Virus record (IMG/VR): IMGVR_UViG_2690316086_000018
Reading direction: 5' to 3' (one strand)
Length of the DNA stretch: 52,397 bases
Source of the DNA: a virus
Lineage: Duplodnaviria; Heunggongvirae; Uroviricota; Caudoviricetes
Both the position numbers and the translations under genes were made by a program. Shown one piece after another: positions 8,708 to 26,520 of the stretch. Within the stretch, counting starts at the first letter, position 1. Every line of letters begins with the position of its first letter. The notes below the pieces were generated by a model. That model was not told the origin of the DNA, searched no databases, and saw nothing but the letters and a program-made list of their open reading frames with translations.

Positions 8708-8854
8708 GTTTTAAACGATATGACGAGACGCTAAAAGAATTGAATCCTATCAATTGGTTAAGCGGTGGTTTTGCCATGTGATATTAGCCGGATCCCGCAA
8801 CAACTCTAGCCCTGACCGGATTAGGTCAAAAATTTAGGCACTTTGATTATCAGG

Positions 8855-9397
8855 ATGGATAAGCAGATGAAGAAGATTTTACTCGTTGCTGGCGCAGCTC
8901 TGGCACTGGCGGGATGTGGTGAGAAAGGTGATTTTGAGAAAGCGATCAATGCCAAGATTGGGCAGGACAAATACTGCTTCTCGCTGGATAACAATAACAC
9001 CAGCTTCCCCATCCGTCTTGCCAAGCCACGGCTTGATTCGACTGGCACAGGAACGAATTCAGTGATCCTCGATGGATTTGTTGAACAGGGAATGATGGTC
9101 TTTGAACAGGGCTATGACTCGAACGTCTTAGGGATAACAGAGGAAGGCAAAAAAGCCAAAGTCTGGAGCACACAAGATGGTGCCTGTGTTGGTCGTCGTG
9201 CCGTTGACGAAATTAAGGAATGGACGGAACCGGGTGAAGGTGGTCAGAAAGTTGTTCGCGTATCTTATACATGGAAGCTTACTGACGTTCCGAGCTGGAT
9301 TGACAAAAAAGTGTTCGCCAACGTTAAAGGGATGAATGAACCTGCTGATGGCGTAATGAATCTCTTTAAGACCAGTAATGGTTGGAAAGCTAACTAA
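8855..9397 (+). CDS. putative lipoprotein
   Basis: MKKILLVAGAALALAGCG signal peptide plus lipobox; track ORF starts at TTG 8843. Confidence 0.55.
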   Translation: MDKQMKKILLVAGAALALAGCGEKGDFEKAINAKIGQDKYCFSLDNNNTSFPIRLAKPRLDSTGTGTNSVILDGFVEQGMMVFEQGYDSNVLGITEEGKKAKVWSTQDGACVGRRAVDEIKEWTEPGEGGQKVVRVSYTWKLTDVPSWIDKKVFANVKGMNEPADGVMNLFKTSNGWKAN

Positions 9398-9826: not shown

Positions 9827-10795
9827 ATGAAGGATAGAATAAAAATAACAATCCCGTTCTCAGAAGAGAATAAAGCTTTCCTTGAGTTTGTTGATGCTTG
9901 GGATCAAATAATTCCAACATGCTATTTTGTCGATATATGTTGTGTTGGTAATATAAAAAATAGCGCTAAATATCTTCTCGAAGAAAATGTAGGTACGAAA
10001 AAATTTTATTTTATAAAATCATTAGAGAGAATAGACCTAAAGCATAACACAATTTCATATTTCCCAGCCTTGATGGAAAAAGTAAGTGATTTTTATAATG
10101 ATAAACCAATTCAGAGATTGAGAGAAGAAGCTAAAGAAGACCTTAATGCGCTGCGATGTTTTTTCAAAAATGTTAGAGTTATGGAGGATACTGATTTTAC
10201 TAACATGTATATTGAAGGTATGAAGTCTCATCACCCTGAAGTTGATGGTGAAAAATATCATCAATTTCTCTCCTTTATTAATGAAAGTGGAATAATCGAC
10301 CCTGTTTCTCCTGACGAAAGATTAGATTTTGTAAGGTTATTCTGTGAACAAGCAAATAGATTGACTCTTGATAAAAGAAGTGTTGTATTTGTTTCGTCTG
10401 TAGCTTGTATTTATGGATGTTTACCTGCAAGAAGATTAATGAAATTCAAACGAGATCCGACTAAATTCAATAGTAGTAACGTGTTGGCAGATTTGCAATC
10501 GGTAAGTCGAGTTGCTAGGTTGTCATCTGAAATCGAATGCACTGGAAGGTCTGCTTTCGCTAGATTCTCATATCTGACTGAGGATAATAACCTTAAAATA
10601 TTATCTGATTGTTTTTTTGTAAGGAATGTCGAGAGAGAAACTATACCAAATGGTATATCTAATAAACTAACTACAACCATAGATGGAAAAAGATTGTTTC
10701 CGGCTCTTTTCAATAGTGATGGTTATTTAATTAATGAGAAAGCAGAACAGGAGTTCAATGAACTATTAACGCTGTTAGGAGTCGATGTACCATAA
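9827..10795 (+). CDS. hypothetical protein, 322 aa
   Basis: AT-rich ORF with aagga RBS; convergent with AbiGi-like gene. Confidence 0.45.
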   Translation: MKDRIKITIPFSEENKAFLEFVDAWDQIIPTCYFVDICCVGNIKNSAKYLLEENVGTKKFYFIKSLERIDLKHNTISYFPALMEKVSDFYNDKPIQRLREEAKEDLNALRCFFKNVRVMEDTDFTNMYIEGMKSHHPEVDGEKYHQFLSFINESGIIDPVSPDERLDFVRLFCEQANRLTLDKRSVVFVSSVACIYGCLPARRLMKFKRDPTKFNSSNVLADLQSVSRVARLSSEIECTGRSAFARFSYLTEDNNLKILSDCFFVRNVERETIPNGISNKLTTTIDGKRLFPALFNSDGYLINEKAEQEFNELLTLLGVDVP

Positions 10796-10848
10796 ATTGA
10801 GAATGTGCTATATAAAAATAACTCTCTTAGCTGATTATGATATATTCT

Positions 10849-10886
10849 ATAGCCTTGTTTTATACTATGCCAAGGCTATATTTATT
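10849..10886. terminator. hairpin between convergent genes
   Basis: atagccttg ... caaggctat inverted repeat followed by A/T-rich run. Confidence 0.35.
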
Positions 10887-10891
10887 AATAA

Positions 10892-11656
10892 TTATAGATC
10901 ATCATTGTTCTGGGAAGAATAGAAAATTTTACTTATTAATTCGTTGCTGACCTCTAGGCCTTTCTTATCAAGATTTTTAATGAATGAACTTAATTGGCTT
11001 TTGTTTTTTAGTATTATATAGTTAATGTCATTTATCCCAAAATCAAGATGAATACTATTTATTTTATCATTATATTCATTCTTTTTTTCAGTGCTTTTTA
11101 TTTTACTGAGTAATGCTATTGGTATTATCCCCTCTTGGTGGGTAGGAACAAATCGCCACTCCATTTCATCTGCAAAACAATAGTCAATTTCTTTTTTGCC
11201 TTCTCTCGTTAGTGGTCCTGTATGATTCTTCATATAACGGAGTATATTTATCAAAGACTGATAATCATTATTTTTGGAATATTCATTCGCAATATCTTTA
11301 TCGTTCTTGAATTTTCTAATCTGCTGATCAAGTAAGGTGAATACATCCGAATATCTACTCATGTATAATACAGGGTTTAAATTGTTTTTTGAGGCCCAGT
11401 CGTCATTAAGACCAATTCCATAATGTCCATACTTCTTTGTATGTTCAGATAACAAAGATAGCCTGATATTACAAAAGGAAACCATTGGTATTCCAAAACG
11501 TCGAGCTACACCATCTTTATTATATATGGTCTCTCTGGCATATGAGGGCCGAAAATATCCATCAGTTAAAATTGATTCCAGCTTGGATTTTTTATCCGTA
11601 AAGTGTAAAAATGTTTTTGGATATAGACTTTTAGTCAATTTCATGAGCCTCGTCAA
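10892..11656 (-). CDS. possible AbiGi-like abortive-infection protein
   Basis: 254-aa ORF; N-terminal FLHFT...LESIL, IPMVSFCNI and YGHYGIGL motifs resemble the AbiGi family as I remember it; not verified by search. Confidence 0.4.
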   Translation of the reverse strand: MTRLMKLTKSLYPKTFLHFTDKKSKLESILTDGYFRPSYARETIYNKDGVARRFGIPMVSFCNIRLSLLSEHTKKYGHYGIGLNDDWASKNNLNPVLYMSRYSDVFTLLDQQIRKFKNDKDIANEYSKNNDYQSLINILRYMKNHTGPLTREGKKEIDYCFADEMEWRFVPTHQEGIIPIALLSKIKSTEKKNEYNDKINSIHLDFGINDINYIILKNKSQLSSFIKNLDKKGLEVSNELISKIFYSSQNNDDL

Positions 11657-11772: not shown

Positions 11773-12465
11773 TTATTTAAATCTTGAATTTGGCTGTTTT
11801 GATTTTTGTGATTGTTTACTACTATGTTCAAACAACATTAATGGTGTCACTTCTATATTGCTATCGGTAGAATTCTCTCCCTTACGAGGACGACTTGGGA
11901 AACGAACGGTCTTGTCATTATCTGATACGTTTCCACAGAAGTCTGCTTCTGATGATTTTTGGTCATTGTTAAATTTAGCTCGTTTTTCAAACTCTGAACG
12001 TGGAACATTGACACCCAACACTTCATCAAAGATATAGTTTTCTGCGATACGCTTATCATGATCAGCATCAGTGGTATCGGGCTTCCTTCTGGCCCATACG
12101 AATCTCTCTCTTATATATCCTACCACCAGTAGTGTGAAACGCTTAAACAAACTACTCTGACGCGGCTTAATCTGTTTCCTACTACTCATGGGAGCACGGT
12201 TCATCACTTTGGTGTTTTGAAGAGATGGGGTTTTCAATTTAGTGGATGCATTTGGTTCAGGAACAACCAGAACAGGGGATTTCTTCCCTGAAACATTTAC
12301 TTTACTGACCTTATTAGGATCACGGTAAGATTTTGCTGCTGGTCTTCTGCTTGTAGTTGCTGTTGCCACAATCGGCTGCTGTTCTTCTACTGTCGGGAAG
12401 TCAGGGATAACAATCTCTTCGGGTTCAGCAAGATGTGTAATCGTAAAGCTTCTGACATCAACCAC
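11773..12465 (-). CDS. hypothetical basic low-complexity protein (GTG start) just downstream of reconstructed mobA end
   Basis: 230-aa K/P/S/T-rich ORF; starts at GTG. Confidence 0.3.
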   Translation of the reverse strand: MVDVRSFTITHLAEPEEIVIPDFPTVEEQQPIVATATTSRRPAAKSYRDPNKVSKVNVSGKKSPVLVVPEPNASTKLKTPSLQNTKVMNRAPMSSRKQIKPRQSSLFKRFTLLVVGYIRERFVWARRKPDTTDADHDKRIAENYIFDEVLGVNVPRSEFEKRAKFNNDQKSSEADFCGNVSDNDKTVRFPSRPRKGENSTDSNIEVTPLMLFEHSSKQSQKSKQPNSRFK

Positions 12466-12515
12466 GATCTCAAGTGGTAGCTCACTGAATGTGGTGTATA
12501 TAGCGCGGCGATTTT

Positions 12516-12581
12516 TTTGATACCGATTTGCATTTCATTTGATACCGCTGAAAAACGCCGATACGCAACTTATTTGATACT
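12516..12581. repeat. prophage-end repeats, three direct copies of TTTGATAC(C/T) (putative transposase-binding sites, mom end)
   Basis: copies at 12516, 12538, 12573; same motif in inverted orientation at the other prophage end. Confidence 0.5.
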
Positions 12582-12626
12582 AAATCGGCGCTTTTCTTTT
12601 GAGTTTTAGAATGAGTTTTTAAGCGC

Positions 12627-13364
12627 TCATTCACTCTCTTTCAAACCAGTTTTAACTGTTTGTGGTTTTGGGTAAGGCTGGACTTTGAATAGCTTTGTGT
12701 TGAGGCGTTTTCTGGCCCTCTTGTTCAGAAACCGGATGTAACGAAACTGTCGGAACTTATGCACACTGGCTCTGTCGATATTAGCCCTCAGATGTTCACC
12801 TCGTTGTCCGCCTCGTTTAATGGCACTCCTGCAAATCTCGTGATACCACTCGCCATCAAGTTCATAGAATGTTGATTCATGGCTGCCTACATAATCAAAA
12901 TTGCTTGCCTGATACACGACACCAAGACAGCCACAACGCTCATCTGCAAACGACTGAACCCACTGTACCTGCGGATAAAGCTGCCTGATTAGCTTGAGCG
13001 CGTAACTGATTGCCCTTGATTCGGAGTTTCTCGGCATACAGTCATGCATCCATAGCCGGTTAAGCTCCATATATTCTCGGTTCTGCGTACCCGTTACGAC
13101 GCGTGCACCACTGTTTGGGTTAAGGGCGTAACCCCATTGCATTACGCCAACAAGTTCCCGTTCTGAAAATATACCCAGATGAAGGTAGGAATTATTTACG
13201 AAACGGTGGCTGTAATGTTTATTGACGATAACCAGTCTGGCCAGCCAGCAACTTATTGTCTCAACCCGCAACTCACGGGAGCCATAACCAACGATATTGT
13301 CGTTATAGCGAATAAGTTCAGGCGTGCTGATGATACGGGATGTGACTTGCTTTCTGTTCCCCAC
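12627..13364 (-). CDS. mom: Mom-like DNA modification protein
   Basis: 245-aa ORF overlapping the 3' end of a Com-like gene, last gene before prophage end, GATC cluster upstream: the Mu com-mom arrangement. Confidence 0.6.
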
Positions 13365-13518
13365 GACAGGATTTCCTTGTGTATGTGGGGTGCTCTGTGG
13401 CGCTCGGAGATGTGATTTGATTGAGGGTTTTACAGCGCGGACATTTTACTTCCAGATAACTGAAACTGGCCCGTGCCAGTAGCTTATTGCAGTGTCGGCA
13501 CCGTATGTTTCGATACAT
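13318..13518 (-). CDS. com: Com-like zinc-finger translational activator of mom
   Basis: [15 protein letters not shown]...EVKCPRCK...EHPT closely matches remembered Mu Com; start taken at internal ATG. Confidence 0.7.
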
Positions 13519-13565
13519 GGCCGCATAACCTCCTGCTTTGTTGTTGATGCCTTTCTCATGCAATC

Positions 13566-13703
13566 GATCGACAAAAACGATCGATTCGATTTGTTTAATT
13601 GATACAACAAATAGATTTAAAAGTCATCAACAATGATTCAGGGCGGTGATTATTTACTTAAAGAAACGAAGAGTTAGGTGGTGAAAACGATCATAAAATG
13701 ATC
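13566..13703. promoter_or_regulatory. GATC cluster upstream of com-mom (probable Dam-dependent regulatory region)
   Basis: GATC at 13566, 13579, 13689, 13700 embedded in ATCGATCG-type motifs. Confidence 0.5.
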
Positions 13704-13924
13704 ATTTTATTGACTTTTTATACAGTGAAGGTAGGATCGCGCGTATATGTAGTATGTTTCAAATCAACAGGATACTACATAAAAGGGAAACCCAGCATAG
13801 CTGGAACTATGCTGGGTCAATCTGTAAAAACTTGCATCAATGCTTTACTTCGAGCTCGTGGCGTATCCTATGATATTCCCCGGTCTCCTGTAAAGCAGAG
13901 ATGCATAAAAAGGAGATCTTTATC

Positions 13925-14095
13925 ATGGATAAAGAGCCTGTTTGCCCTGCCTGTAAGACTCCCTTACAGCTCATCTATCGCCGTTCTCGATCTCAAAATG
14001 GCAAGACATACAAACCAAAAAATGCTTCCTGTTTCAGGATGCTGATATGTCCTGCCTGTTCTCCCCGGAGGGAAAATACACAAAACGTGCATTAA
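13925..14095 (+). CDS. small zinc-ribbon protein (CPAC...CPAC), possibly Ogr/Delta-like
   Basis: 56-aa ORF with strong aaaaggaga RBS; two CxxC pairs; divergent from com. Confidence 0.3.
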   Translation: MDKEPVCPACKTPLQLIYRRSRSQNGKTYKPKNASCFRMLICPACSPRRENTQNVH

Positions 14096-14133
14096 CAAAT
14101 TCACCCGGCAGGGAAACCTGCCGGTCGGTATTG

Positions 14134-14379
14134 TTACATCATAGTACCGTCAGTTCCGGGCTGAACCGGCTCTGGTTGCTCTACGGGTTGAGGCTCATTT
14201 TCCGTGCTGTTTTCAGCCGGAGAACGACCAACCATTCGGGCCAGCACTTCATCAACATATGCGTCGATTTGTGCCTCAAAATCCTTGCGAACCTGCGCCT
14301 TCAGCACGCGGTTCACTTCTTCAGAATAAAGTGCCTGTTTGACAAGCTCTTCAGTAACCGTGCCTTTAATCTCTGGCAT
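14134..14379 (-). CDS. hypothetical protein
   Basis: 81-aa ORF with aaggag RBS; acidic/Pro-rich C-terminus. Confidence 0.45.
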   Translation of the reverse strand: MPEIKGTVTEELVKQALYSEEVNRVLKAQVRKDFEAQIDAYVDEVLARMVGRSPAENSTENEPQPVEQPEPVQPGTDGTMM

Positions 14380-14414
14380 GAATATTCTCCTTTCCTTTTC
14401 TGGTTCACAAAAAA

Positions 14415-14594
14415 TTAAATCTGACCGGAGTCTTTCGGCTGCGGCATTACAGCACCGCTTTTTATCTTTTCCTCGGCAGCTGCATCAATTTTATTTCGAA
14501 AATAATTGCGAATAATTTTATAACCACCGCTGACAAGCAACAGACAACAAACCACCGTGCAGAAATACAGCAGGCAGACGTTTATATATGTCAT
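14415..14594 (-). CDS. small membrane protein, 59 aa (not in ORF track)
   Basis: hand translation MTYINVCLLYFCTVVCCLLLVSGGYKIIRNYF...; GAGG RBS; one N-terminal TM helix. Confidence 0.3.
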   Translation of the reverse strand: MTYINVCLLYFCTVVCCLLLVSGGYKIIRNYFRNKIDAAAEEKIKSGAVMPQPKDSGQI

Positions 14595-14651
14595 ATAAGC
14601 CTCACTCTTATTAACTGATGTTACAGCCGGATAAATTCCCGGCCGTCACGA

Positions 14652-16709
14652 TTATGCCGCAGGGGTATTAACCTCAAGGACAACGCTCTCAAAAGACACG
14701 CCATAAGTTGCCCCTTTGGTGACATCTGTCAGTGTCAGCGTATCTTTGGCAGGGGAAAGTGCATCTTTCACCATCTGGAATGCCTGGCCCGGAGTGCCAT
14801 CCAGCACAGGCGTTACCTGGGCACTTCCCGCCGTAAACTTCAGGACAAGTGTATGCCACTGGTTATTGTAGGCTCCAAATGATCCCAGTTTCGTATTCCC
14901 CCCTGTTTTATGGTGCATCAGATTTAACTGGCCGCCTGTTGTCTGGAGATAATACGCCATCAGGAACGGTGTGCCTGTACCACTCATGGTTACACCTTCC
15001 GGGACCGTATCGGTGTGGAGGTAAATACCCAGAGCAAACTGGCCTTCTTTTACTTCACCTGACAGACGGAATTTACAGGTCAACTGACCACCATGCTTCA
15101 GAAGTTCACCGGCTGCATCAGTTCCATGGGTAAGCGCCCAGGTTTTTCCGCTTTGTTTGGATACGGTCAACGCTTTACCTTCGTCCGTCAGCTGGATTGT
15201 ACCATCTGTAATTTTCCAGCCCTGAGCCGGGGCTTCTCCTGCTGATGCTTTAAGTGAAAGCAGCGTACGGAGTGACGGGGATGTCGGATGGGGGGACTCA
15301 CTGCCTCCTGGCTGACTACCTGTCGGCGCTTCCGGTTTCCCACCCGGCGCGGGCTGAGGCAGGGCTTCACCATCAGGGGCCACACCGGCAATAAATGCAG
15401 AGGTCAGACCTGCATATTTAAGAATTGCTGATGCAAAACGATCTGAGACCAGAAAACGGCGCGCCCAGGAGCTAAAATGGGTTGCCCTGGATGCTGTTGT
15501 CCAGTTGCCATCTCCCCGTGATTCCGCACCATAATACCCGGCAGAAGCGATATCCGGGTCGTGCTCCGGCAGGTTGGTCGCGGTTTTATTACCGAACTCA
15601 TCGTGCATCAGTGGAACAAAGTGAATGTTCTCGGAAGCCCGGTTTTTATATCCGCTATAAATGGTTTCATATGCCGCCGGGTTCTTCTCTTTCCAGTCAT
15701 AGGTTGTGTCACCACATAACCACGGCACACTGTCTGATGAACCACCAATACACTGACCGGAGAAAGCACCAAGATCCGCACGGAATTTTTTCACCATCGC
15801 AGTAAACTGGGCACCATGCTGGGCCGGGGTCGCTTTAAGGTCTCCTTCCCCCTGAATCCATACGACAGATAACAGCACATTCTTTGGATTCGCCTCAAGT
15901 GCCGCTTTAGTTCGACTGACAAGATCCTGATACAGTGGGGTATCCACTCCCCAGCGTAGTGACGCCTCGGCTGCACCACTTGCCGGATCGAATGAGCCAA
16001 CTGCGCCGGTTGTAAAAGCAGAGCCGCCACGGGCACAGGGAACCAGTAAAATCCCGGCATCAGCAGGAATCACCGGTAATACTTTTTTCGCAATATGAAG
16101 TCCCTGCCCCACACAACCATACTGCCCTTTTTTCAGGTCTGCTTTTGGATGGTTCAGCAGACTCATATTCTGAACATCATGAAGGCAGTGATCTGCTGGA
16201 ATGATTTCATTGTATTTGCAGGGAATACCTCCGGGGGTTTGTGTATTCCTGCGTGCCAGCTGCATAATACGTGGATCAGGACGATCATAAGAATCCGGAA
16301 GGGGCAACCCTTCACCATAAGATGAAGCATTGGACTGGCCGGCTATAACAATCACGTAATACCAGGAAGGGGAGCTGGAAGCCGTTTCATTTCCTGCCGG
16401 ACGGGTATGTGTTTCTGCATTATCCCAGTCTGACGGTTCAGTAGTACCGGCAACATCAGCACTTAACGGAATGACAGCACCAATACCCGCTCCGGTAATT
16501 TCCACGTTCGGATCACCGGATACTGGCCTTACCCACAGGCAATCCTGTGTATTAAAACTGATGAGACAGTCAGCAAATGTCATTCCTCCTTTCGTTTCAG
16601 CAGGAGGAAAGGGAGCCTCAAGAAATGCCGCTGTACCACCGGAAACTTTAACGGTAAAGTTTCCGGGCATTGATGATAGTTGAACCCATTTGGACGTCAT
16701 AATATTCAT
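14652..16709 (-). CDS. SGNH/SASA-type carbohydrate esterase-domain protein with C-terminal beta-sandwich-like domain (prophage cargo gene)
   Basis: 685-aa ORF with VIVIAGQSNASSYGEG (GQSN serine motif of sialate-O-acetylesterase-like SGNH hydrolases); lies between gin and com-mom. Confidence 0.6.
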   Translation of the reverse strand: MNIMTSKWVQLSSMPGNFTVKVSGGTAAFLEAPFPPAETKGGMTFADCLISFNTQDCLWVRPVSGDPNVEITGAGIGAVIPLSADVAGTTEPSDWDNAETHTRPAGNETASSSPSWYYVIVIAGQSNASSYGEGLPLPDSYDRPDPRIMQLARRNTQTPGGIPCKYNEIIPADHCLHDVQNMSLLNHPKADLKKGQYGCVGQGLHIAKKVLPVIPADAGILLVPCARGGSAFTTGAVGSFDPASGAAEASLRWGVDTPLYQDLVSRTKAALEANPKNVLLSVVWIQGEGDLKATPAQHGAQFTAMVKKFRADLGAFSGQCIGGSSDSVPWLCGDTTYDWKEKNPAAYETIYSGYKNRASENIHFVPLMHDEFGNKTATNLPEHDPDIASAGYYGAESRGDGNWTTASRATHFSSWARRFLVSDRFASAILKYAGLTSAFIAGVAPDGEALPQPAPGGKPEAPTGSQPGGSESPHPTSPSLRTLLSLKASAGEAPAQGWKITDGTIQLTDEGKALTVSKQSGKTWALTHGTDAAGELLKHGGQLTCKFRLSGEVKEGQFALGIYLHTDTVPEGVTMSGTGTPFLMAYYLQTTGGQLNLMHHKTGGNTKLGSFGAYNNQWHTLVLKFTAGSAQVTPVLDGTPGQAFQMVKDALSPAKDTLTLTDVTKGATYGVSFESVVLEVNTPAA

Positions 16710-16799
16710 CCTGTTCCTGAATAAACAGAATTATCATATCCACAGACCGATAAACGCCATTTTGCGTTAATTCAGTAAAGGCCCAACAAAGGGAGCGTC

Positions 16800-17360
16800 T
16801 TATTTTTCCGAAACGCTCGCAGGATAATAACGATAAAGGGTTGAAAGGCCGATATCAAAAATAAGTGCCACCTGTCTTCGACTGACACCCCCGGCCAGTA
16901 AACGCCCGACCTGCTCGTATTGTTCCTGCGTGAGACGACGGGGTCTGCCGCCGGTTCGTCCCCTTTCACGGGCAGCTGCAAGACCAGCCCGTGTCCGTTC
17001 GACAATTAATTCACGCTCCATTTCTGCCAGCGCACCCATTATGTGAAAAAAGAAGCGCCCCATGGGGGTTGACGTATCAATGTTGTCAGTAAGACTACGA
17101 AAATTTATCCCCTGTTGCTGTAATTCATCTGTCAGCGCAACAAGGTGGCGCATACTGCGCCCCAGCCTGTCCAGTTTCCAGACCATCAGTGTGTCACCGG
17201 GTTTTAGTTTCTTCAGTGCCCGCTTCAGTCCCGGCCGCTGTGTCGTTTTACCACTCATTTTGTCTTCAAAAATCTGCTCACATCCTGCACATTCCAGCGC
17301 ATTTCTTTGTAAACCGGTGTTCTGGTCATTTGTTGATACGCGTATATAGCCAATCAGCAT
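16800..17360 (-). CDS. gin: Gin-type serine DNA invertase
   Basis: MLIGYIRVSTNDQNTGLQRNAL...DRLGRSM...; near-identical in pattern to Mu Gin/Hin/Cin. Confidence 0.9.
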   Translation of the reverse strand: MLIGYIRVSTNDQNTGLQRNALECAGCEQIFEDKMSGKTTQRPGLKRALKKLKPGDTLMVWKLDRLGRSMRHLVALTDELQQQGINFRSLTDNIDTSTPMGRFFFHIMGALAEMERELIVERTRAGLAAARERGRTGGRPRRLTQEQYEQVGRLLAGGVSRRQVALIFDIGLSTLYRYYPASVSEK

Positions 17361-17414
17361 GTATTTACCTTCCTTAAAAAGAGGTGGAAAGGCCTTTTAA
17401 AGCAGATATACGGC

Positions 17415-17440
17415 ATCCCTGAAACCTCGGTTTACGGGAT
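17415..17440. other. gix-like invertase crossover site (left)
   Basis: ATCCCTGAAACCTCGGTTTACGGGAT; core AAACCTCGGTTTAC matches the Mu gix core. Confidence 0.7.
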
Positions 17441-17785
17441 ACTGTAAACAGGGCCGCGAATGCCCTGCCATCGAACGGAACGGCTGTTGCAGCGAATAAA
17501 CTCGCCACTCCAAGAAATATTAATGGTGTCCCATTTGACGGAACGCAGGATATAAATATTACATCGGGGATGACGCAGTCTGTGGCTGACTCACGTTATG
17601 TTCAAAGCATTCGAAGAGGTTCAAGGTCAACGATTGGAATGCAATATAATATTTTTGAAGTTCCTGACGGATGCGTACTTACAGGGCTTGATGTCGCTGG
17701 TGATGGTAATGCAACGGTAACCGCATATTATCGACCTGTTCAGTTTCTGATAGATGGTTCGTGGAAAACAGCTTCCAGCGCATAA
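17423..17785 (+). CDS. alternative tail-fibre C-terminal segment (promoterless in current orientation)
   Basis: in-frame translation from the gix site gives NLGLRDTVNRAANALPS...RPVQFLIDGSWKTASSA, homologous to residues ~176-303 of fibre 18421-19332. Confidence 0.6.
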   Translation, partial: NLGLRDTVNRAANALPSNGTAVAANKLATPRNINGVPFDGTQDINITSGMTQSVADSRYVQSIRRGSRSTIGMQYNIFEVPDGCVLTGLDVAGDGNATVTAYYRPVQFLIDGSWKTASSA

Positions 17786-17864
17786 AAGTGCAGTAGTTCA
17801 AAAAACAGATTATCTGAATAAATATATGATGATTTTGTCTTTTCAACAAAAACAAGGTGAAATA

Positions 17865-18386
17865 ATGGAGCTTATTAACGTAAAACGATATTACCCGGAA
17901 CACAAACCCTATGGTGAGGATGTTCAGTATTTCCAGAGTGAGGACGGAAGGGATTTTTATGAATCTATCCCGCTTTTCACAAAGAAATACAAACTCTGTA
18001 TTTCGCCTGTAACGGGTATTATCTGCTCTGTTGCTGAAGATGTCTCTGCTTTATATCCGGCAGGTTTTACTGTTGTTGAAGTGGACGAACTGCCGGAAGG
18101 TGTGAATATTGACGGTAACTGGCAGTGTTCTGATGGCCTGATATCAAAGGTGCCGGTAAACTGGAAGACGGTTGCTGAAAAGCGTCGCTCATCGCTGCTC
18201 CAGGAAGCCAACGAAACCGTGGATGACTGGAAAACAGAATTAAAACTGGACATGATTAGCGATGAAAATAAATTACAGCTGACGCGCTGGATGGCGTATA
18301 TCCGACAGCTTAAAGAAATGCACTTTAATGATATTGCCAGTGAGGGGCATTACCAGGCGATTCCCTGGCCGGAAAAACCGGAATAA
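17865..18386 (+). CDS. tail fibre assembly protein (chaperone)
   Basis: MELINVKRYYPE...QLTRWMAYIRQLKEM...WPEKPE typical Tfa family; aaggtga RBS; track ORF starts at 17754. Confidence 0.85.
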   Translation: MELINVKRYYPEHKPYGEDVQYFQSEDGRDFYESIPLFTKKYKLCISPVTGIICSVAEDVSALYPAGFTVVEVDELPEGVNIDGNWQCSDGLISKVPVNWKTVAEKRRSSLLQEANETVDDWKTELKLDMISDENKLQLTRWMAYIRQLKEMHFNDIASEGHYQAIPWPEKPE

Positions 18387-18391
18387 TTCAG

Positions 18392-18415
18392 AGGGTGCAT
18401 TCAGCACCCTTTTCT
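18392..18415 (+). terminator. rho-independent terminator after tfa
   Basis: agggtgc-attca-gcaccct hairpin followed by TTTT. Confidence 0.55.
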
Positions 18416-18420
18416 GTGGT

Positions 18421-19332
18421 TTACACTGAACTTACCGTTCTCCAGGCATTATTAATATAAATCTGAACCGGGCGATAATAGACCCCACCGATATTGTCCG
18501 CAGACCGGGAGCCGGTTTCCTGCACGTTAATACCGGAAAGCATACAACCGGAAGGTGCGCTGTAATTCCATGATATTTCATTGCCTCCGGGTGAATGATA
18601 GCTCTGTGCTCCAAGCTGAACATTCTGTACATACCGGCCATCTGCGGTTGACTGCGTCATTCCTGACGTGATGTTGATATCCTGCGTTCCGTCAAAAGGA
18701 ACGCCATTAATATTTCTTGGGGTGGCGAGTCTGTTTGCTGCCACGGCGGTTCCACCCGATGGCAGGGCATCAGCAGCCTTATTTACCGTTTCCCGTAAAC
18801 CGACGTTATCGATAAAAGCGCCTTTATCCGGAATGTCTGCGCCGTTCTGCTCCCTGCGCAGGTAACGGTTATCACCTTCGCTTTTGCTGTAAACATCCAG
18901 ATTATTACGGGCGGTTCCCGCATTCTCCAGGTCGGCAAGGTTCTGATCCTTCGCCAGAGCATTAACGTCACCGGGACCAAGACTGTTTTTTGTGGCAAGC
19001 GCCCCAAGACCAAGATAACCACGGGCAAGACGCTGGGCTTCCGCACCGGCATCAGCAATTTCTTTCAGGTTGTTTTTCCGGGAAAAGGCATTCGCAGCGA
19101 TAATGGCTTTAATGGACAGCGTAAGCTGGTTTAACTGCGCCTTATCCGGCTGAATACTGGCTTCAGCCAGAATATTCAGCAGTTCGGCCTGGAGAATATT
19201 CAGCCAGTCCTGACCAATCCAGCTGATACCTTTTTGTCCGTCACCTTCGGTAAACCAGGTGGTGGTATTACTCTGCGCCGGTGCCAGCGCAGGCATATTC
19301 GCCACGCCGGAATTATTATCAACATGAAACAT
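18421..19332 (-). CDS. tail fibre protein (constant N-part plus currently attached variable C-part)
   Basis: 303 aa; gix site inside the gene at codons ~176-184 (IDNVGLRETV). Confidence 0.8.
   Translation of the reverse strand: MFHVDNNSGVANMPALAPAQSNTTTWFTEGDGQKGISWIGQDWLNILQAELLNILAEASIQPDKAQLNQLTLSIKAIIAANAFSRKNNLKEIADAGAEAQRLARGYLGLGALATKNSLGPGDVNALAKDQNLADLENAGTARNNLDVYSKSEGDNRYLRREQNGADIPDKGAFIDNVGLRETVNKAADALPSGGTAVAANRLATPRNINGVPFDGTQDINITSGMTQSTADGRYVQNVQLGAQSYHSPGGNEISWNYSAPSGCMLSGINVQETGSRSADNIGGVYYRPVQIYINNAWRTVSSV
18790..18815. other. gix-like invertase crossover site (right, inside tail-fibre gene)
   Basis: TTCCCGTAAACCGACGTTATCGATAA, ~22/26 identical to remembered Mu gix TTCCTGTAAACCGAGGTTTTGGATAA. 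Confidence 0.75.
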
Positions 19333-19892
19333 TAAATAGTCTCCTCTTCATGGCTGTTTGCATACACGTAAATAAACGTCTGCCATGCAGGCTTATAACG
19401 GTTCAGAATACATTCCAGCGCACCGCCTTCATAAATACGCAGCGGCGTGAGAATATCATCCAGCACATTCATATTCCGGTAGCCGGTTTCACTGTTAATC
19501 GTGACAATACTGACCCACTGTGAATCCGGTGATGGCTGAATATCTATTTCATAACCAAACTCTGCCGCAAACCGGATATAAAATTCACGGTTAAGAGAGG
19601 GTTTCATCCGGTATTTATTCCCGGCATAACGCTGACGCTCCTGAATTGTTGCGCCGGTCATATCACATTCCGGTAACCCCAGATAACGCTCCCAGTCTTC
19701 CAGCAGCAGACGGGATGAATCAGGAAAACGTTCTGCCAGCATCTGGTTACCGGTCCAGGAAACACGCTCCGTGGAATGACTGAGGCCCAGGCACAAAGCC
19801 GCAAGAACGGATGACGGCCGCTTATCCCATGCCAGCCCGTCAGGCAGCAACTGCAACAGGGCACGCTGATGCGGGGTCAGGGTTACAGCCAT
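19332..19892 (-). CDS. Mu gp48-like tail/baseplate protein
   Basis: position between baseplate J-like and fibre genes; 186 aa. Confidence 0.6.
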   Translation of the reverse strand: MAVTLTPHQRALLQLLPDGLAWDKRPSSVLAALCLGLSHSTERVSWTGNQMLAERFPDSSRLLLEDWERYLGLPECDMTGATIQERQRYAGNKYRMKPSLNREFYIRFAAEFGYEIDIQPSPDSQWVSIVTINSETGYRNMNVLDDILTPLRIYEGGALECILNRYKPAWQTFIYVYANSHEEETI

Positions 19893-20968
19893 GTGATTTC
19901 CCCCACGGTCAGCAACTCTGTATCTCCGGCCATCACGGACTTCAGCGGGCTGCGAACTTCAAAATCCTCCAGTCCTTTCACCCCTGCAACAGCCCGCCAG
20001 AATGATGAAGGCAATACAAGTCCACCCGGCCGCGATTCGTTATAAAGCAGGTCCGTTAATGCCTGTTTTACGGCAGCCTGATTTTCCGGCGTTTTGGGTA
20101 CAATCCTGATCTCAAACGCCACCGGCTTATTGGTCAGCTTAAACACGCTGATTGTCGGCCCAAGTGGCTGACCAACGGGCTGGCCCGTCGCCGGATCATC
20201 ATGACTGCGGATATAATCCGCCACCCGCTTCACATCACCTTCTCCGGGGAAAATGTCAGGGTTATTATCCTGAACAAAAGTCACACCAACACTACCCGCC
20301 TCAGGCCATTCAGGCTTACACCATGCCCGCGTCACGCCCGGTACTTCCCGTGCCCAGCGTTCAAAATCATACTGTGTTCCCCCTGATGGCGGGTTCTGTA
20401 CCCGGAATACCAGCCTGGACAGCAACTCCGGCACCGTTTCCACATCCGCACCACCGGTGAGTCCCGTGCCGGTGACCGTGGCTGTCTGGTTGATGCCCGC
20501 CTGTGGCGTGATAAAGGACAGGCGGGTTCCGGTCGGGGTATTTCCAGCGCGCCCCGCACTTTCCGCCTCCACATTAACATTCAGTGTTCCGGCTTTTCCG
20601 GTCGCAGAGCCGGTGATGCGGTACACAACACCATCGCTTCGCTGAAGGAGTACGCCTTCCGTGATCCCTGCATCCGTGGTCAGCATCAGTTGTACCGGTC
20701 CGTCAGCGCGGGAAGCCGGTTTACGGATGACACCCCAGAATGCGCAGTGTTTCAGGAGTTCGGCTTCATCAGCTTCTGTCGGAATTATCTGCCGGGAGAT
20801 CCAGGCCAGATGTTCATGCTCCTGTGCTGACAGACCCGCCAGTGCATACGCAATGGCATTCAGGGTGGTTTCATTCACGCCCGGCTGCGAACCGGGCAGG
20901 CGCTGGCTGATATCCTGTTGTGTCTGTGTGATCAGTTGCGCCAGTGGTAAGGGCTGATAAGGCATCAT
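19883..20968 (-). CDS. baseplate J-like protein (Mu gp47-like)
   Basis: 361 aa; order in baseplate module. Confidence 0.7.
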   Translation of the reverse strand: MMPYQPLPLAQLITQTQQDISQRLPGSQPGVNETTLNAIAYALAGLSAQEHEHLAWISRQIIPTEADEAELLKHCAFWGVIRKPASRADGPVQLMLTTDAGITEGVLLQRSDGVVYRITGSATGKAGTLNVNVEAESAGRAGNTPTGTRLSFITPQAGINQTATVTGTGLTGGADVETVPELLSRLVFRVQNPPSGGTQYDFERWAREVPGVTRAWCKPEWPEAGSVGVTFVQDNNPDIFPGEGDVKRVADYIRSHDDPATGQPVGQPLGPTISVFKLTNKPVAFEIRIVPKTPENQAAVKQALTDLLYNESRPGGLVLPSSFWRAVAGVKGLEDFEVRSPLKSVMAGDTELLTVGEITWL

Positions 20969-21402
20969 TCCCCCTTCATATCAGCATAAAAAATCATCGG
21001 ATGTCTGCTTCCGTCCGGCAGGGTGATTTTCACGGAAAGCGAAAGGCGAGCATGCCCCACACGCATGGCATGACATACCACGGATGTGGCAGCACCGCTT
21101 TTATGCAGCCACGCCAGCGCTTCATCAGCATAGGCCTGTGCACGGCTGACCACGGAGGACAGCGTCTTTTCACGGCTTAACAGCCAGAGACGGGAGCCAA
21201 CGGGGCGCTCCCGGAAACTGTCTCCCCACCATCCCCGACGGTCACGGGTGCCGTCAGGGATTTCATCGGAATCCAGCGCCCGCCTGTCCGTAAACAGTGA
21301 AATAATGACCGCAGTCAGCAGGCTGTTATCCGTCAGAAGATCTGCGCCGTTCAGTTGCAGGGAACCGCAACCCTGATCCCAGACGACAGCAATATCAGCC
21401 AT
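20965..21402 (-). CDS. Mu gp46-like baseplate protein
   Basis: likely start MADIAVVWDQ at 21402; track ORF extends to 21615 overlapping upstream gene. Confidence 0.55.
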   Translation of the reverse strand: MADIAVVWDQGCGSLQLNGADLLTDNSLLTAVIISLFTDRRALDSDEIPDGTRDRRGWWGDSFRERPVGSRLWLLSREKTLSSVVSRAQAYADEALAWLHKSGAATSVVCHAMRVGHARLSLSVKITLPDGSRHPMIFYADMKGE

Positions 21403-22009
21403 TCTCTGGTCCTCCCGTTTTGCTGCCTTCACCGTTATCGTGATGCACATGACCTGAATAGGTGATCCCGGCAATAACCGCTTCGGACATCGTGAACGTC
21501 CCCTGTGATCTTCCGGTGCCGTCAATGGACACATTGCCTTTGACATGCAGGTTCTTATCCACTGTGACATTACCGGTAAAGTGAGCCTCCGGTGTATCCA
21601 CCTGAACACCTTCATCGGCGTAAATCTCCAGCGTCTTACAGGTCACAATGATCCGGCCGTTCTTTGTCAGACGTATACGGTGCCCCTCATGGTGATACAC
21701 GCCGGTATCTCCGGCGGTAAGTCCGGTCGGGCGACTGCGGCGGTCTTCCACCACAAGCACCACGGCCTGATCCCGTTGTCCGCCAGCACAGGCCAGAAAA
21801 ACTTCCGCACCAGGCAGGGGGACGCTGATTTGCCCGTACTGCTGGGGGCGTTCAACGTCATCAAAGGTTTCACCATCCATACCGGTGATTTGCACATTCT
21901 GGATTTTCATCGTGTCCGTTGTGCCGGTCAGTACACCACGCCCGAACAGCAGACGAACACCCCGCATCACGGGGGCCAGAAGGCGGCTGATGACTTCGTC
22001 ATTCATCAT
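21395..22009 (-). CDS. baseplate assembly/spike protein (Mu gp45 / gpV-like)
   Basis: 204 aa; position and size. Confidence 0.6.
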   Translation of the reverse strand: MMNDEVISRLLAPVMRGVRLLFGRGVLTGTTDTMKIQNVQITGMDGETFDDVERPQQYGQISVPLPGAEVFLACAGGQRDQAVVLVVEDRRSRPTGLTAGDTGVYHHEGHRIRLTKNGRIIVTCKTLEIYADEGVQVDTPEAHFTGNVTVDKNLHVKGNVSIDGTGRSQGTFTMSEAVIAGITYSGHVHHDNGEGSKTGGPENG

Positions 22010-23123
22010 TGAATTTAATCCCCTGTTTTTTCATCTGTGCCCGCACGAAGGCGTCCACGTCACCCGCATTTCCGCTTCCGCTGTTTCCCGGCTCTGCCGG
22101 AACAATAAAGCCGTCACGGGGTGCCAGAATCAGACGGGTGGTTTCGCCGTGATTTGCATCCAGCGAAAACTCCACCTGACAGACAAGAAGATCACGCTCT
22201 TCCACTCCGGTGCGGGGAGCCGTGACAGCCGTCAGCAGGTTGATATCCCACAACTGGCCGTTCTCCCGAAACCAGTGCCGCACGGTGGCTGTCAGGCGCA
22301 CAGAGCGGGCAACCGCCCGGCGCATTTCCCGGACAGCCCTCTGGCGTGCACCGTCTGCATCAACAGCATGATCCGCCAGCACAATTTTCGGTCTGTAACG
22401 GTGGATGGCACTGTCTGTCACCGTACCAACGGGTGCGGCCAGCGTTCCGGCTGTCAGTGCATCCCCGGCATGACCACCACCACGCCCGTGCCCCCGTACA
22501 CGGTATTCACTGTGGCGCAGATGGTGATCCACGTTGTGATCCAAATCCAGCAGATTTTCGCCCAGCGTCAGCGTGTCGCCACGCTGACTGCCGGCCTGAG
22601 TGAAAACCAGTTCACCGGCGGCATTACTGGTTACCAGGACGCCTCTGTGTCTCGCGGCCCGTGTCAGCGCATCTGCCACGGTTTCTGAGTTTTCCAGTGT
22701 GAAGGTGGAAAAGGGCCGGGCTGCCGTTGCATCATTTACCTGCCAGCGCACCGTGACCCCGAACGGAGCACACAAATCTGAAGCAATGTGCTCCAGCGTG
22801 CGGTTCCTCCACTGGCTGCCCGGATGAATGGCTGAACAGTCCACCAGGTCACCGGTTTTATCCCGTCCGCTGAGCGTGATCTGAAAACGCGTGGCGCTGA
22901 TGCGCTGCCGGACCTGATCCAGCCAGCCAGTGATCACAGGCTGACCGTCAATGCGCAATTCCAGAGACTGACCGGCACGGACGGATGACGGAAGGCGTAC
23001 ACCGGGCATCATTACCCCCAGTTCAAAGGAGCCCGCCAGATGTTCAAGAGAGCGACGAACACTCACCGTCAGCCAGCCGGAAAAAATCTCACCGCCCAGA
23101 TACAGTTCAACCCTGCTGCTCAC
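21999..23123 (-). CDS. Mu P-like baseplate hub protein
   Basis: 374 aa; gene order after DNA circulation protein. Confidence 0.65.
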   Translation of the reverse strand: MSSRVELYLGGEIFSGWLTVSVRRSLEHLAGSFELGVMMPGVRLPSSVRAGQSLELRIDGQPVITGWLDQVRQRISATRFQITLSGRDKTGDLVDCSAIHPGSQWRNRTLEHIASDLCAPFGVTVRWQVNDATAARPFSTFTLENSETVADALTRAARHRGVLVTSNAAGELVFTQAGSQRGDTLTLGENLLDLDHNVDHHLRHSEYRVRGHGRGGGHAGDALTAGTLAAPVGTVTDSAIHRYRPKIVLADHAVDADGARQRAVREMRRAVARSVRLTATVRHWFRENGQLWDINLLTAVTAPRTGVEERDLLVCQVEFSLDANHGETTRLILAPRDGFIVPAEPGNSGSGNAGDVDAFVRAQMKKQGIKFNDE

Positions 23124-24477
23124 TAATCACCTCCACTGAATGGCCTCCGGGAATGAACAGCGGATCAACAATACCGTTACGGCGCACAAAACGTTGCCAG
23201 CCGGTACTGTTCCCGGTGGCACGGTACAGGGTCACCAGTGCAGGCTCGGTGGTACGTACAGTCACTACTGTTGCACCGGGTAGCTGAACTCCCCGTGTAT
23301 TCAGATCCTCTGTCAGTGCCAGTCTGGCATCACGAAGCGTCAGCGCCGTGGCGGTATACCCCTGCCCGGACAGTGTCATCACCTGCCGTTCGAGCGCTTC
23401 GCTTAAGTCACGGTTAATGCGCTGAAGATCAACTGAACTTTCCAGCCAGACAGGCCAGGTACGGTGGGCTGCGTCACTGTCCGGCAGGGTTTCCTGACTG
23501 AGAACCTGATCCAGCAGTTTTCCCACGGTCTGTGCCTGGGCCACCACGGCAGCACTCTGCATTACCGCCCGTATCAGACGAATATTCTTTTGTGCTGCCG
23601 GTGTCAGACCGATGAGAGTCTGCGGATTATCCTGCTCATCCAGCACGTAACGCAGGGAAGATAATGTCCTGTACAGTTGCGGCATTCCCTGAGAGACGGC
23701 GGATGTCGTCCGGCCGATACTGCCACCGGGCCGGGTATTCAGGCCTCCTGAAGACAGTGACGGCAGCGATGGCAGGGTGATCAGGGCACTGAAAAGCCCC
23801 GCAAAAGATGAGGCCATGCGGGAAGGTGCTGTCAGTAATGCCGTGGCATTCCCTTTCAGCGCCGTGAACGTGGCAGTAAAGGCACTGATATCCTGTACAA
23901 TCCCCATGCCGGAAACGGCATTTTCCAGGGCGGACACCTTATCGCTGATGGTTTCGGTCATTGCCTGGACATCGTGCATTCCGTCAGAAATCACCGTCCA
24001 GCCCGCTTCCAGGGTTTCAAAAACCTTCCCGAGCGCGGTGGTACTCTTCTGCTCCAGAATGGCGGCCGTGTCCTGTGTGACAGCAGGTGCGGTATCATCA
24101 CTTACCGGCGTGACATTAATGGTGAACTCAACCACGCCCTGTTCAGCAGCGTTATAACGACTTTCAAAGCTGTTTATCAGCACATTTAACGTGCCGTAAT
24201 CCGGGTGAAGCAGCTCCCCGGCACCGGGTGCACGAAGGGCATCACGCAGACGATTTCGCTGTGTCTGAACATCATCCCCCATCACAAGTACACTGAACGT
24301 AAATTCAGCCAGTTTAGGTCCCAGATCGTCTGCACCACCGGTTTCCCGTAACGGATATTCCCGACGGACAATGTTTCGCCCGCCACGTTCGCGCTGCTCA
24401 CGCCAGACGAGGAACGGCACACCACGGAACGCACCACGACCGTCACCAGAGGCCATAATTCCCTCCGTTCCAGACAT
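23107..24477 (-). CDS. Mu N-like DNA circulation protein
   Basis: 456 aa directly downstream of tape measure, as in Mu. Confidence 0.65.
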   Translation of the reverse strand: MSGTEGIMASGDGRGAFRGVPFLVWREQRERGGRNIVRREYPLRETGGADDLGPKLAEFTFSVLVMGDDVQTQRNRLRDALRAPGAGELLHPDYGTLNVLINSFESRYNAAEQGVVEFTINVTPVSDDTAPAVTQDTAAILEQKSTTALGKVFETLEAGWTVISDGMHDVQAMTETISDKVSALENAVSGMGIVQDISAFTATFTALKGNATALLTAPSRMASSFAGLFSALITLPSLPSLSSGGLNTRPGGSIGRTTSAVSQGMPQLYRTLSSLRYVLDEQDNPQTLIGLTPAAQKNIRLIRAVMQSAAVVAQAQTVGKLLDQVLSQETLPDSDAAHRTWPVWLESSVDLQRINRDLSEALERQVMTLSGQGYTATALTLRDARLALTEDLNTRGVQLPGATVVTVRTTEPALVTLYRATGNSTGWQRFVRRNGIVDPLFIPGGHSVEVISEQQG

Positions 24478-26518
24478 TCACATCCAGTCCGTGACCGGAC
24501 GTGTCATCAATATCAATACTGCGAGCCTGCCACCCTTCCGGGGCAACCAGCTCCACACGGGCAGAGGCTTTTTGTACCGCCTGTCCACTGCTTTCATCAT
24601 CACTGCCCCGTAATTTCTGCCAGGCTTCAGTCAGCCATCCCCCCAGATAGTTACCGAGATAGCTGCCCACCGTAGAACCAATGGCAATCCCCACAGGTCC
24701 GGCTGCCGCCCCCAGCGCACCACCGGCAATACTGCCTGCAAGAGAGCCGACCGCTTCTCCCTTGTCTGTGGCACTGGCGCTGCCATCCAGCAGAACCGGG
24801 GCTGCCATCGCGCCAGCCCACAGGGCACCTCCACCCAGCCGGCCGGCCAGTCCACCGGCACTGCGGAAAAAGCCGGAGAAACGCCCCAGCCCCATGCGGC
24901 TACCGACAGACGAAAGTAACCCACCGGCGCGCCCCATCATGCGCCCCCAGAACCCTGCCCCACCAGAAGAGGGAGACGGTGGCACTGGGGACGGTGGCAG
25001 GGGAGGCGTGACCGGTCTTCCGCGCCCCGGTCCGCGTTTCCTGCGGCCCCGCCCCTGACGTCCGCCTGAGGATGTATCGGTCGCGCCGGTGCCGGACAGT
25101 CCTCCTGTGGGCCAGTTTGTTACAAGTACTGGCTGAACGGCTGCCGGATTTACCCCGGTAAGAAAGTTTATAAAACGTTGCCCTCGTCCCTGAGATGTGC
25201 CTGGTGGTGTTCCGGCCGGAGGAGAGCGCCGGAAAGGTGAAGTCAGGAAGGCCGCCGCTGATAATCCGTATCCCAGCAATGCAGCACCCGGACGTATAAT
25301 CCCCGTTCCGACAGCCCGCGCCATTTTCAGGGCACGGGTGGCGAGATACATGTACAGCAGGTATTTCGCGGCAGTCTGTGCCCCCTGACCAATGCGATCC
25401 AGCGCATCACCATAGCCCGCATCCCGCAGAGCCTGAAGCGTGTCGCGTACCTTTCTGATCGCCTGATAAAACCCTGTCACTGCATCACGGGCATACTCAA
25501 AGCCCTGGTTCATGGCTGATGCCGTGCTTTCCGCCAGGGAATGGTAACTGCCATCAGATTTGGCACTGTCAACCCATGAAAGAAATCCCCTGAGATTACC
25601 CTTCAGTTTTTCAAATGGCCCACTGTCCATCACATCCCGGGCAAACTGGTCCCAGACGTCACCCATCATGGCCGTCAGGCCACTCCAGGAATTCATTGCG
25701 TCCTTTTGTGCTCCCCTGGCCTGTTCCGCCAGCGTCTGAAATAACAGGCGAATACTGTCCGGCCCAAGCAGCCCTTTTTCACCAAGTTTTCTGACCACTT
25801 TCTGGTCCACACCCAGACGATCAGCCAGCACGCGGTAGGCATTAATGCCGTAGGTGGCAAGAATATTTGCATCCGCCGCCTGAATACTGCCTCTTGCATA
25901 CATCTGTTTCAGTTGCAGGGATGCCCCCTGTGCATCGGACAGTGACCAGCCGCCCACGGCCCCCTGATCCTGAAGCATGGTGACAAAATTTCGGGCCTCC
26001 CTGTCACTCATACCAAAGCCCAGACTGGACGTATATTCCTGCATGACGCCAGCCAGCCCCCAGGTGGTTTCCTTCGCATTCTGTATTGCCCACCTGCGGA
26101 CATCATCAGTTTTCGCCCGATCCCCTTTGTAAAGGGAGTTCAGGCGAATCATATAGGTTTCCATCTCCGCTGCCGGGCGAATAAATCCCCGGTTAAAGCC
26201 ATATACAGCAGCACCACCGGCCAGCATTCCGTAAAGATTGCTGATCCGCCCGATGGTGCCGGTAATACTGCCCTGAAGACGGTCAAAATCAGAAGTGACA
26301 TGGCGGATACTGCCCCGCACCCCGGCCAGCGTGCGCTGCATCCTGCTTCCGAGTACATCTGTTTCCTGCCCGGCACGGCGGGCAGCATTTCCCAGGCCAC
26401 CCAGCCCCGCCTGGCCGGAGCGTGAGAATGCCCCCAGCTCCTGTGACCACTGGCGGGATTTGGCTGAGATATTGCCGAGCAAATCAACTATCAGAGATGC
26501 TCTGAGATTTCGGGCCAT
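24443..26518 (-). CDS. tail tape measure protein
   Basis: 691 aa, Gly/Ala-rich low-complexity C-terminal region, follows chaperone. Confidence 0.75.
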   Translation of the reverse strand: MARNLRASLIVDLLGNISAKSRQWSQELGAFSRSGQAGLGGLGNAARRAGQETDVLGSRMQRTLAGVRGSIRHVTSDFDRLQGSITGTIGRISNLYGMLAGGAAVYGFNRGFIRPAAEMETYMIRLNSLYKGDRAKTDDVRRWAIQNAKETTWGLAGVMQEYTSSLGFGMSDREARNFVTMLQDQGAVGGWSLSDAQGASLQLKQMYARGSIQAADANILATYGINAYRVLADRLGVDQKVVRKLGEKGLLGPDSIRLLFQTLAEQARGAQKDAMNSWSGLTAMMGDVWDQFARDVMDSGPFEKLKGNLRGFLSWVDSAKSDGSYHSLAESTASAMNQGFEYARDAVTGFYQAIRKVRDTLQALRDAGYGDALDRIGQGAQTAAKYLLYMYLATRALKMARAVGTGIIRPGAALLGYGLSAAAFLTSPFRRSPPAGTPPGTSQGRGQRFINFLTGVNPAAVQPVLVTNWPTGGLSGTGATDTSSGGRQGRGRRKRGPGRGRPVTPPLPPSPVPPSPSSGGAGFWGRMMGRAGGLLSSVGSRMGLGRFSGFFRSAGGLAGRLGGGALWAGAMAAPVLLDGSASATDKGEAVGSLAGSIAGGALGAAAGPVGIAIGSTVGSYLGNYLGGWLTEAWQKLRGSDDESSGQAVQKASARVELVAPEGWQARSIDIDDTSGHGLDVNVWNGGNYGLW

Positions 26519-26520
26519 AC

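Follow-up and report, generated by a model that had tools for sequence, protein, structure and literature searches.

The closest described relative of the gene considered here belongs to AbiG, a validated abortive infection (Abi) system of two genes, abiGi and abiGii, that is triggered by a major tail protein (PMC12184496). The Pfam family of AbiGi, PF10899, has been placed among the ADP-ribosyltransferase (ART)-like families, nearest to DUF2971 and DarT (PMC12522546), and Aristaios, a single-gene DUF2971 protein of ART fold, defends Lactococcus (PMC11381338). We have analyzed an AbiGi-family gene on a 52,397-nt stretch of viral DNA (IMG/VR record IMGVR_UViG_2690316086_000018), called the window below, in which it is convergent with a gene for a 322-aa protein. 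The AbiGi protein of the window carries histidine in its first motif (motif I) and has no AbiGii partner, as is the case for a whole branch of the family. Taken singly, the locus is unremarkable within a family that is already annotated; what is modestly new is the family-level picture, in which a partner-less, His-type, DarT-like branch is distinct from the AbiGii-linked branch.

A sequence-only reading of the window had assigned the open reading frame (ORF) at 10892-11656, minus strand, to the AbiGi family, and this assignment stands. The motifs on which it was based, FLHFT, IPMVSFCNI and YGHYGIGL, are all present in the translation, and the ORF matches Pfam PF10899 with E=4.3e-25 (89.3 bits, against a cutoff of 22.4) and the PADLOC AbiGi model with E=9e-45 (151 bits, spanning model positions 18-259 of 260). 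It shares 26% identity end to end with AbiGI of Lactococcus, the prototype, over 98% of the length (BLASTP E=4e-16), and the two proteins have in common the motifs PM..FC, YG, PV.Y, K, ExEWR and a C-terminal D.I.Y/ISK. By these profile and pairwise comparisons the product of 10892-11644 is an AbiGi protein over its full length, far beyond chance. A TTG at 11656 would give 254 aa, but the ATG at 11644 is the more likely start, since RefSeq starts the gene there in the identical locus of Escherichia coli O103 strain ML775 and the homologues start there as well. The ORF is intact, and a Salmonella homologue is 95% identical. A PDB sequence-profile search with the AbiGi family gave no match. A tblastn search of a collection of deposited phages found no AbiGi relatives; the viral contigs of IMG/VR do contain AbiGi.

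The AbiGii partner, whose absence downstream had already been remarked on, is indeed missing. Neither AbiGii (PF16873) nor any other nucleotidyltransferase (NTase) was found in the non-prophage parts of the window among ORFs of at least 100 aa, extended to ORFs of at least 50 aa around the AbiGi/322-aa locus; the downstream neighbour, the gene for the 322-aa protein, is convergent and unrelated to AbiGii. No DarG/macrodomain antitoxin was seen among the ORFs neighbouring AbiGi. An alignment of solo and AbiGii-paired AbiGi proteins has 17 invariant columns, the core including E38, P53, F57, C58, I60, H68, Y72, G73, P91, Y94, K139, E160, E162, W163 and R164. The two groups differ in motif I, on the N-terminal strand, which reads FHFT in solo proteins versus F[NKRT]F[MT] in the paired ones. 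The window protein does not carry the AbiGii-linked signature: it has FLHFT as motif I and VSFC as motif II, not F[NKRT]F[MT] and [TLSK]CFC. Across 145 loci, AbiGii accompanies none of 117 His-type proteins and 12 of 13 non-His proteins. When loci were de-duplicated at 80% identity and room for a downstream gene was required, AbiGii was absent from 85 of 85 His-type groups and lay 0-4 nt downstream in 9 of 10 non-His (N/K/R/T) groups. The same 0-4 nt spacing is found on plasmids of Lactococcus, Enterococcus, Bacillus and Niallia and in 8 viral contigs. A prediction made from the motif rule also held: the protein P0038, which has the paired-type motif, is followed right after its stop codon by an AbiGii_2 gene. 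The His-type branch is thus a partner-less "solo" subfamily, always without AbiGii in this sample.

Nor does a universal alternative partner emerge for the solo proteins. When 834 flanking ORFs from 105 distinct AbiGi groups were clustered, the top family occurred in 6 loci and belonged to one phage late-gene module, and in a Pfam scan of 136 immediate neighbours no family appeared more than 4 times, AbiGii at most once. On a 111-kb linear IncFIB plasmid of E. coli (L131 3956-6015) and in two further loci (L101 and L102), a His-type AbiGi gene is followed after 26 nt by a same-strand gene for a 403-aa protein, which has a weak HSDR_N_2-like match.

An AlphaFold2 model of the AbiGi protein, built with 27 homologues, is confident (pLDDT 86, pTM 0.82). 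A Foldseek search of the PDB with this model gave DarT as the sole match of note (E 0.024, probability 0.75), and Foldseek also returned structurally similar, uncharacterised phage proteins. These scores are modest but concordant, and the model points to an ART-like fold, in agreement with the published placement of PF10899 (PMC12522546). For the lactococcal AbiGi a review reports no PDB matches (PMC13064643), a result to which the DarT-like match of the His-type protein is a small addition. Candidate ART motifs are H14 (in FLHFT), S56-F57-C58 (PMVSFC) and E160-x-E162 (EMEWR); after these comes a C-terminal region of ~80 aa that is also conserved. In the model H14 lies in strand 12-16, S56-x-C58 ends strand 47-58 ahead of helix 62-72, and E160-x-E162 comes just before strand 162-165. 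In the predicted model the candidate motifs thus follow the order expected of an ART core, and their residues are conserved; we infer from the model a catalytic role for H14, S56, E160 and E162. The sequence-only reading had offered a solo AbiGi-like effector as one of two possibilities, and this one is supported: the protein is a true AbiGi, has no AbiGii, belongs to a partner-less subfamily and combines an ART-like fold with conserved residues.

The locations of the solo homologues are typical of defence cargo. In a P2-like Serratia prophage a His-type homologue sits between the tail-fibre and sheath genes, a position we take to be the Z/fun moron hotspot, and other His-type homologues follow the lysis genes in the late region of Pantoea-type phages. 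On the F-type plasmid pEQ011 an AbiGi-family gene (L132 3971-4792) lies beside Avs4, between it and the leading-region genes (DUF905, ParB-like, psiB) and on the strand opposite to the latter. In Citrobacter koseri the version of the island that has AbiGi alone (L006 8420-10357) also carries an STM3845-family gene and a reverse transcriptase (RVT_1). This combination looks like a retron-type defence module and supports the view of the interval that holds it as a collector of defence cargo.

From these observations a function can be proposed, for which we infer the activity, target, trigger and defence phenotype: the AbiGi protein of the window would be a stand-alone, ART-like abortive infection effector carried as cargo. 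The product of 10892-11644 would act without AbiGii, as a self-contained protein. Its ART-type catalytic domain would span about residues 10-170, with H14, S56, E160 and E162 as the candidate NAD+-binding and catalytic residues, and it would stay inactive in the absence of phage, with the ~80-residue C-terminal region as a possible sensor of the cue. Once triggered it would ADP-ribosylate its target, either an essential protein or a nucleic acid, and growth of the phage (and of the cell) would stop, much as with DarT, CmdT or Aristaios, the DUF2971 system of one gene. The AbiGi gene is cargo that can be exchanged, situated right after the relaxase gene on an island that is integrative and mobilizable, and the gene for the 322-aa protein is a separate item of cargo. 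This is the reading we favour, although we regard the chances of its being right or wrong as evenly balanced.

Several points weigh against it. The literature searched contained no experiments on any solo AbiGi-type protein, the prototype AbiGi needs AbiGii for its described phenotype, and neither lactococcal abiGi nor abiGii is toxic in E. coli (PMC3985639). A lone toxic ART without an antitoxin needs autoinhibition, which here is hypothetical. The association of motif-I class with AbiGii (Fisher p = 8.5e-12) ignores phylogeny and must be interpreted with caution, because the two motif classes look like two clades, and the loci were fetched by clade-typical peptide patterns, motif I not being among them. 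Finally, some His-type genes are linked to the gene for the 403-aa protein, which may serve some of the "solo" proteins as a different partner, so that the term may not hold for all of them.

The main rival to a defence function is that the solo AbiGi serves the mobile element that carries it, either as an anti-defence or host-takeover ART, as T4 Alt and Mod are, or as an addiction or exclusion factor. It is well known that phages use ARTs to modify host proteins, and the phage proteins retrieved by Foldseek resemble AbiGi structurally. In addition, AbiGi was always found on mobile elements: directly downstream of the relaxase in two island variants, near the leading-region genes of an F plasmid, in prophages and in viral contigs. 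Against this, the pEQ011 gene neighbours Avs4 and runs opposite to the leading-region genes, the moron positions in prophages are typical of defence genes, and the sole tested member of the family belongs to a defence system (PMC12184496). We regard service to the element as unlikely.

A second alternative appears quite improbable: an orphan gene in decay or without catalytic activity, whose product would be either an "antitoxin" that has outlived its AbiGii or a pseudoenzyme with a binding or regulatory role. Both RefSeq and Pfam label the AbiGi family "antitoxin", and the variability of motif I (N/K/R/T) in AbiGii-paired members implies that catalysis may not be essential in the family. Yet the ORF is intact and so close to its Salmonella homologue, and the retention of H14 and the ExE motif in 85 diverse solo groups argues for selection on those residues. 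As for the label, it has no experimental basis, since neither of the lactococcal proteins is toxic in E. coli (PMC3985639).

The relation of AbiGi to the 322-aa protein was examined in three versions of one island backbone, whose relaxases are ~76% identical and whose SEN1982/SEN1984 lipoproteins are 53-65% identical. In the island of Pectobacterium atrosepticum a homologue of the 322-aa gene stands directly against the relaxase gene and AbiGi is absent. The C. koseri island and an Enterobacteriaceae metagenome-assembled genome have AbiGi and lack the 322-aa gene, and the E. coli island of the window has both. Elsewhere the 322-aa family occurs without AbiGi in metagenomes, among them a 43%-identical relative, and on plasmids. 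At 116 other AbiGi loci, from genomes and viral contigs, no relative of the 322-aa protein lies within 4 kb, and no AbiGi was found in the flanks of 17 distinct loci of the 322-aa family. Each gene thus occurs without the other in the same island family, and on comparative genomic context we reject a conserved partnership between AbiGi and the 322-aa protein; judged by this context, its gene is independent cargo in the variable interval between the relaxase and lipoprotein genes. The "variant Abi arrangement" that had been suggested for the two genes is accordingly not upheld, as they occur independently and are convergent rather than co-transcribed. It is very improbable that the two genes make up a new Abi pair in which the 322-aa protein takes the place of AbiGii, be it as effector or as sensor. 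In its favour, the pair is adjacent (96 nt) in the island of the window and in the identical ML775 locus, and the closest homologues of both proteins (98% and 95% identity) are from Salmonella, where the two may travel together. The four invariant acidic residues of the 322-aa family also suggest a nuclease, and family members lie elsewhere among defence-type genes. Against it, convergent genes do not form an operon, each gene is found alone on this backbone, the loci counted above show no linkage, and the AbiGi/322-aa stretch was present in just one of 5,426 complete E. coli genomes.

The 322-aa protein belongs to a family of 4 clusters by word-indexed search and of 216 representative clusters by exhaustive profile search. 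It has no match among the Pfam, PADLOC, NCBIfam and PDB-sequence models, and no unrelated annotated function emerged from the Pfam search. The sequence-only reading had raised the possibility of NTase motifs in this protein, and here the outcome was negative: no NTase profile matches it, and with a BLASTP E of 5.3 against lactococcal AbiGII it was rejected as an AbiGii. For 76 family members, too, Pfam (with its PIN models), PADLOC and NCBIfam gave no match, and a PDB profile search with the family produced weak, non-significant matches alone, the best (E = 0.019) being to LRR proteins. The AlphaFold2 model is unusable (pLDDT 48 from a 5-sequence alignment). In an alignment of 76 sequences four acidic residues are invariant, in the D-E-D-D order of PIN nucleases (VapC), and the local motifs around them (YFLDxC, ISxxLAxxE, NALxDI and FxTxD) recall PIN in order and flavour. 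Unlike VapC, the protein is 322 aa long, with motifs 2 and 3 set apart by ~80 additional residues, and no antitoxin gene adjoins its own. An hhalign comparison of the family with a VapC profile gave a probability of 0.4% with motif 1 alone aligned, in a test of low power because the profile is shallow (Neff 2.7; 7 plasmid VapCs and ~40 close homologues, the added relatives all at least 73% identical). A comparison with a single VapC was likewise non-significant; the reference VapC sequence checked was PDB 3TND. Jackhmmer found no PIN proteins in the gathered loci. A PIN-like nuclease identity is suspected from the motifs, without support from the profile tests, and the protein is possibly a metal-dependent nuclease.

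Members of the 322-aa family lie among integrases, transposases and defence-type genes, and the family may be an undescribed family of defence-island genes. A SIR2-family gene adjoins a family member in two plasmids and is near one metagenomic copy (loci L145, L146 and L004/L148). In Acinetobacter pMRA the 322-aa family gene is followed by the SIR2-family gene; in Methylorubrum pME152 the family forms the C-terminal part of a 565-aa protein whose gene is divergent from that for SIR2. As a fixed partner SIR2 was rejected, being within 4 kb in 2 of 17 distinct contexts, and is kept as a lead only.

The sequence-only reading was accurate as to the layout of the locus: the two ORFs are convergent across a 96-nt spacer that contains a 10-bp inverted repeat, with arms at 10848-10857 and 10871-10880 (Table 1). 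The hairpin is possibly a bidirectional terminator. It is weak evidence of function, because its loop is long and the whole spacer folds no better than shuffled sequence (z = -1.6).

Table 1. Features of the window discussed in the text.
Feature	Position	Strand	Basis or remark
SEN1982-family lipoprotein gene	8843..9397	+	backbone marker bounding the variable cargo interval (lipoprotein ... mobQ)
Gene for 322-aa protein	9827..10795	+	convergent with AbiGi; undescribed family; invariant D36, E84, D222, D253
Intergenic hairpin	10848..10880	.	perfect 10-bp stem TATAGCCTTG/CAAGGCTATA, 13-nt loop
AbiGi-family gene, His-type "solo" subfamily	10892..11644	-	250 aa from ATG 11644
MobQ/MobA-MobL relaxase gene, 3' part	11773..12465	-	RefSeq annotation of the intact ML775 gene; tblastn to Pectobacterium and Citrobacter relaxases
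Mu-like prophage, 39.1 kb, inserted in mobQ	12499..51613	-	Mom PF25680 E=8.5e-77; flanks contiguous in ML775
Relaxase gene, 5' part (MobA_MobL domain)	51609..52397	-	Pfam MobA_MobL E=5e-55; collinear with ML775

In ML775 the two ends of the window (1-12498 and 51614-52397) are joined without interruption, at 99.9-100% identity, in an integrase-bearing island that adjoins yodB/zinT; among its genes are those for a MobQ relaxase, H-NS, lipoproteins, a TIR-domain protein and an ATPase/HNH pair. The 3' part of the relaxase gene is immediately upstream of AbiGi on the same strand, with a gap of about 116-128 nt. The relaxase gene is split and truncated by the insertion of the Mu-like prophage, with junctions at 12498/12499 and 51613/51614, and the insertion probably immobilises the island. 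A clean 5-bp target duplication could not be assigned at these junctions, where TGTA alone is common to both. The com-mom end of the prophage faces the AbiGi side (com 13318-13563, mom 12627-13364), and its late and structural genes are on the minus strand. The prophage is context and not part of the AbiGi module.

Three other parts of the island were noted. Window positions 9409-9662, between the SEN1982 lipoprotein gene and the gene for the 322-aa protein, are a frameshifted pseudogene in the ML775 annotation; tblastn with the 215-218-aa proteins found at the equivalent position in Pectobacterium and Citrobacter gave no match there. Positions 6279-7460 encode a 393-aa protein of the island backbone with a long N-terminal region, in which a C-terminal ComEA-type helix-hairpin-helix (HHH_3) is the sole assigned domain. 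In ML775 the island extends beyond the part present in the window (L001 16892-22427), with a shikimate kinase-like gene, a TIR-domain protein, integrase remnants, two ATPase genes and an HNH endonuclease in a Septu-like layout, and the island integrase adjoining yodB.

At the level of the family, we tentatively envisage two classes of AbiGi. His-type proteins, of Gram-negatives and their mobile elements, would be autonomous NAD+-dependent ART effectors providing single-gene anti-phage immunity, and the AbiGii-linked proteins would have lost the motif-I His and act with AbiGii; separately, the 322-aa protein would be the founder of an undescribed D-E-D-D nuclease-like family of defence islands, sometimes coupled to SIR2. 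Taken as one picture this is rather doubtful. If it is true, no His-type protein is rightly called "antitoxin" in the databases; that annotation rests on analogy only, and the existence of the partner-less branch makes it doubtful. The matter bears on thousands of genes that carry the pipeline label "abortive infection system antitoxin AbiGi family protein". Defence finders that require AbiGi and AbiGii together would ignore the solo members. The partner-less branch is large and widespread, in Enterobacteria, Bacteroidota and many prophages and plasmids, and it keeps an enzyme-like ART signature. Were its members autonomous effectors, a compact single-gene ART module of defence (or counter-defence) would be added and a misleading annotation corrected, with histidine or non-histidine in motif I as a simple rule separating the two AbiGi classes.

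Among known systems the nearest is AbiG of L. lactis pCI750, to whose AbiGi the window protein is a full-length homologue with 26% identity. The window differs in having no AbiGii, in motif I (FHFT with His, versus F[NKR]FM with Asn/Lys/Arg), in motif II (VSFC versus [TLS]CFC), in its Gram-negative host, and in the setting of the gene, which is in an island adjoining a relaxase gene and not in a bicistronic operon. DarT, the DNA ADP-ribosyltransferase toxin of DarTG, has 10-13% identity to the AbiGi protein of the window, which has no adjacent DarG/macrodomain gene. CmdTAC, an mRNA ADP-ribosyltransferase defence, likewise uses an ART-like toxin in anti-phage abortive infection (PMC11618068), but CmdT depends on neighbouring genes for an antitoxin and a chaperone, and nothing comparable accompanies AbiGi in the window. 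Aristaios of Lactococcus plasmids belongs to another Pfam family (PF11185 versus PF10899); by published descriptions it is alike in being a single-gene, ART-fold, Abi-type system, and its family DUF2971 is the nearest to AbiGi (PMC11381338, PMC12522546). An autonomous His-type AbiGi would thus be an incremental extension of the ART-based immunity known from DarTG, CmdTAC and Aristaios rather than a new principle.

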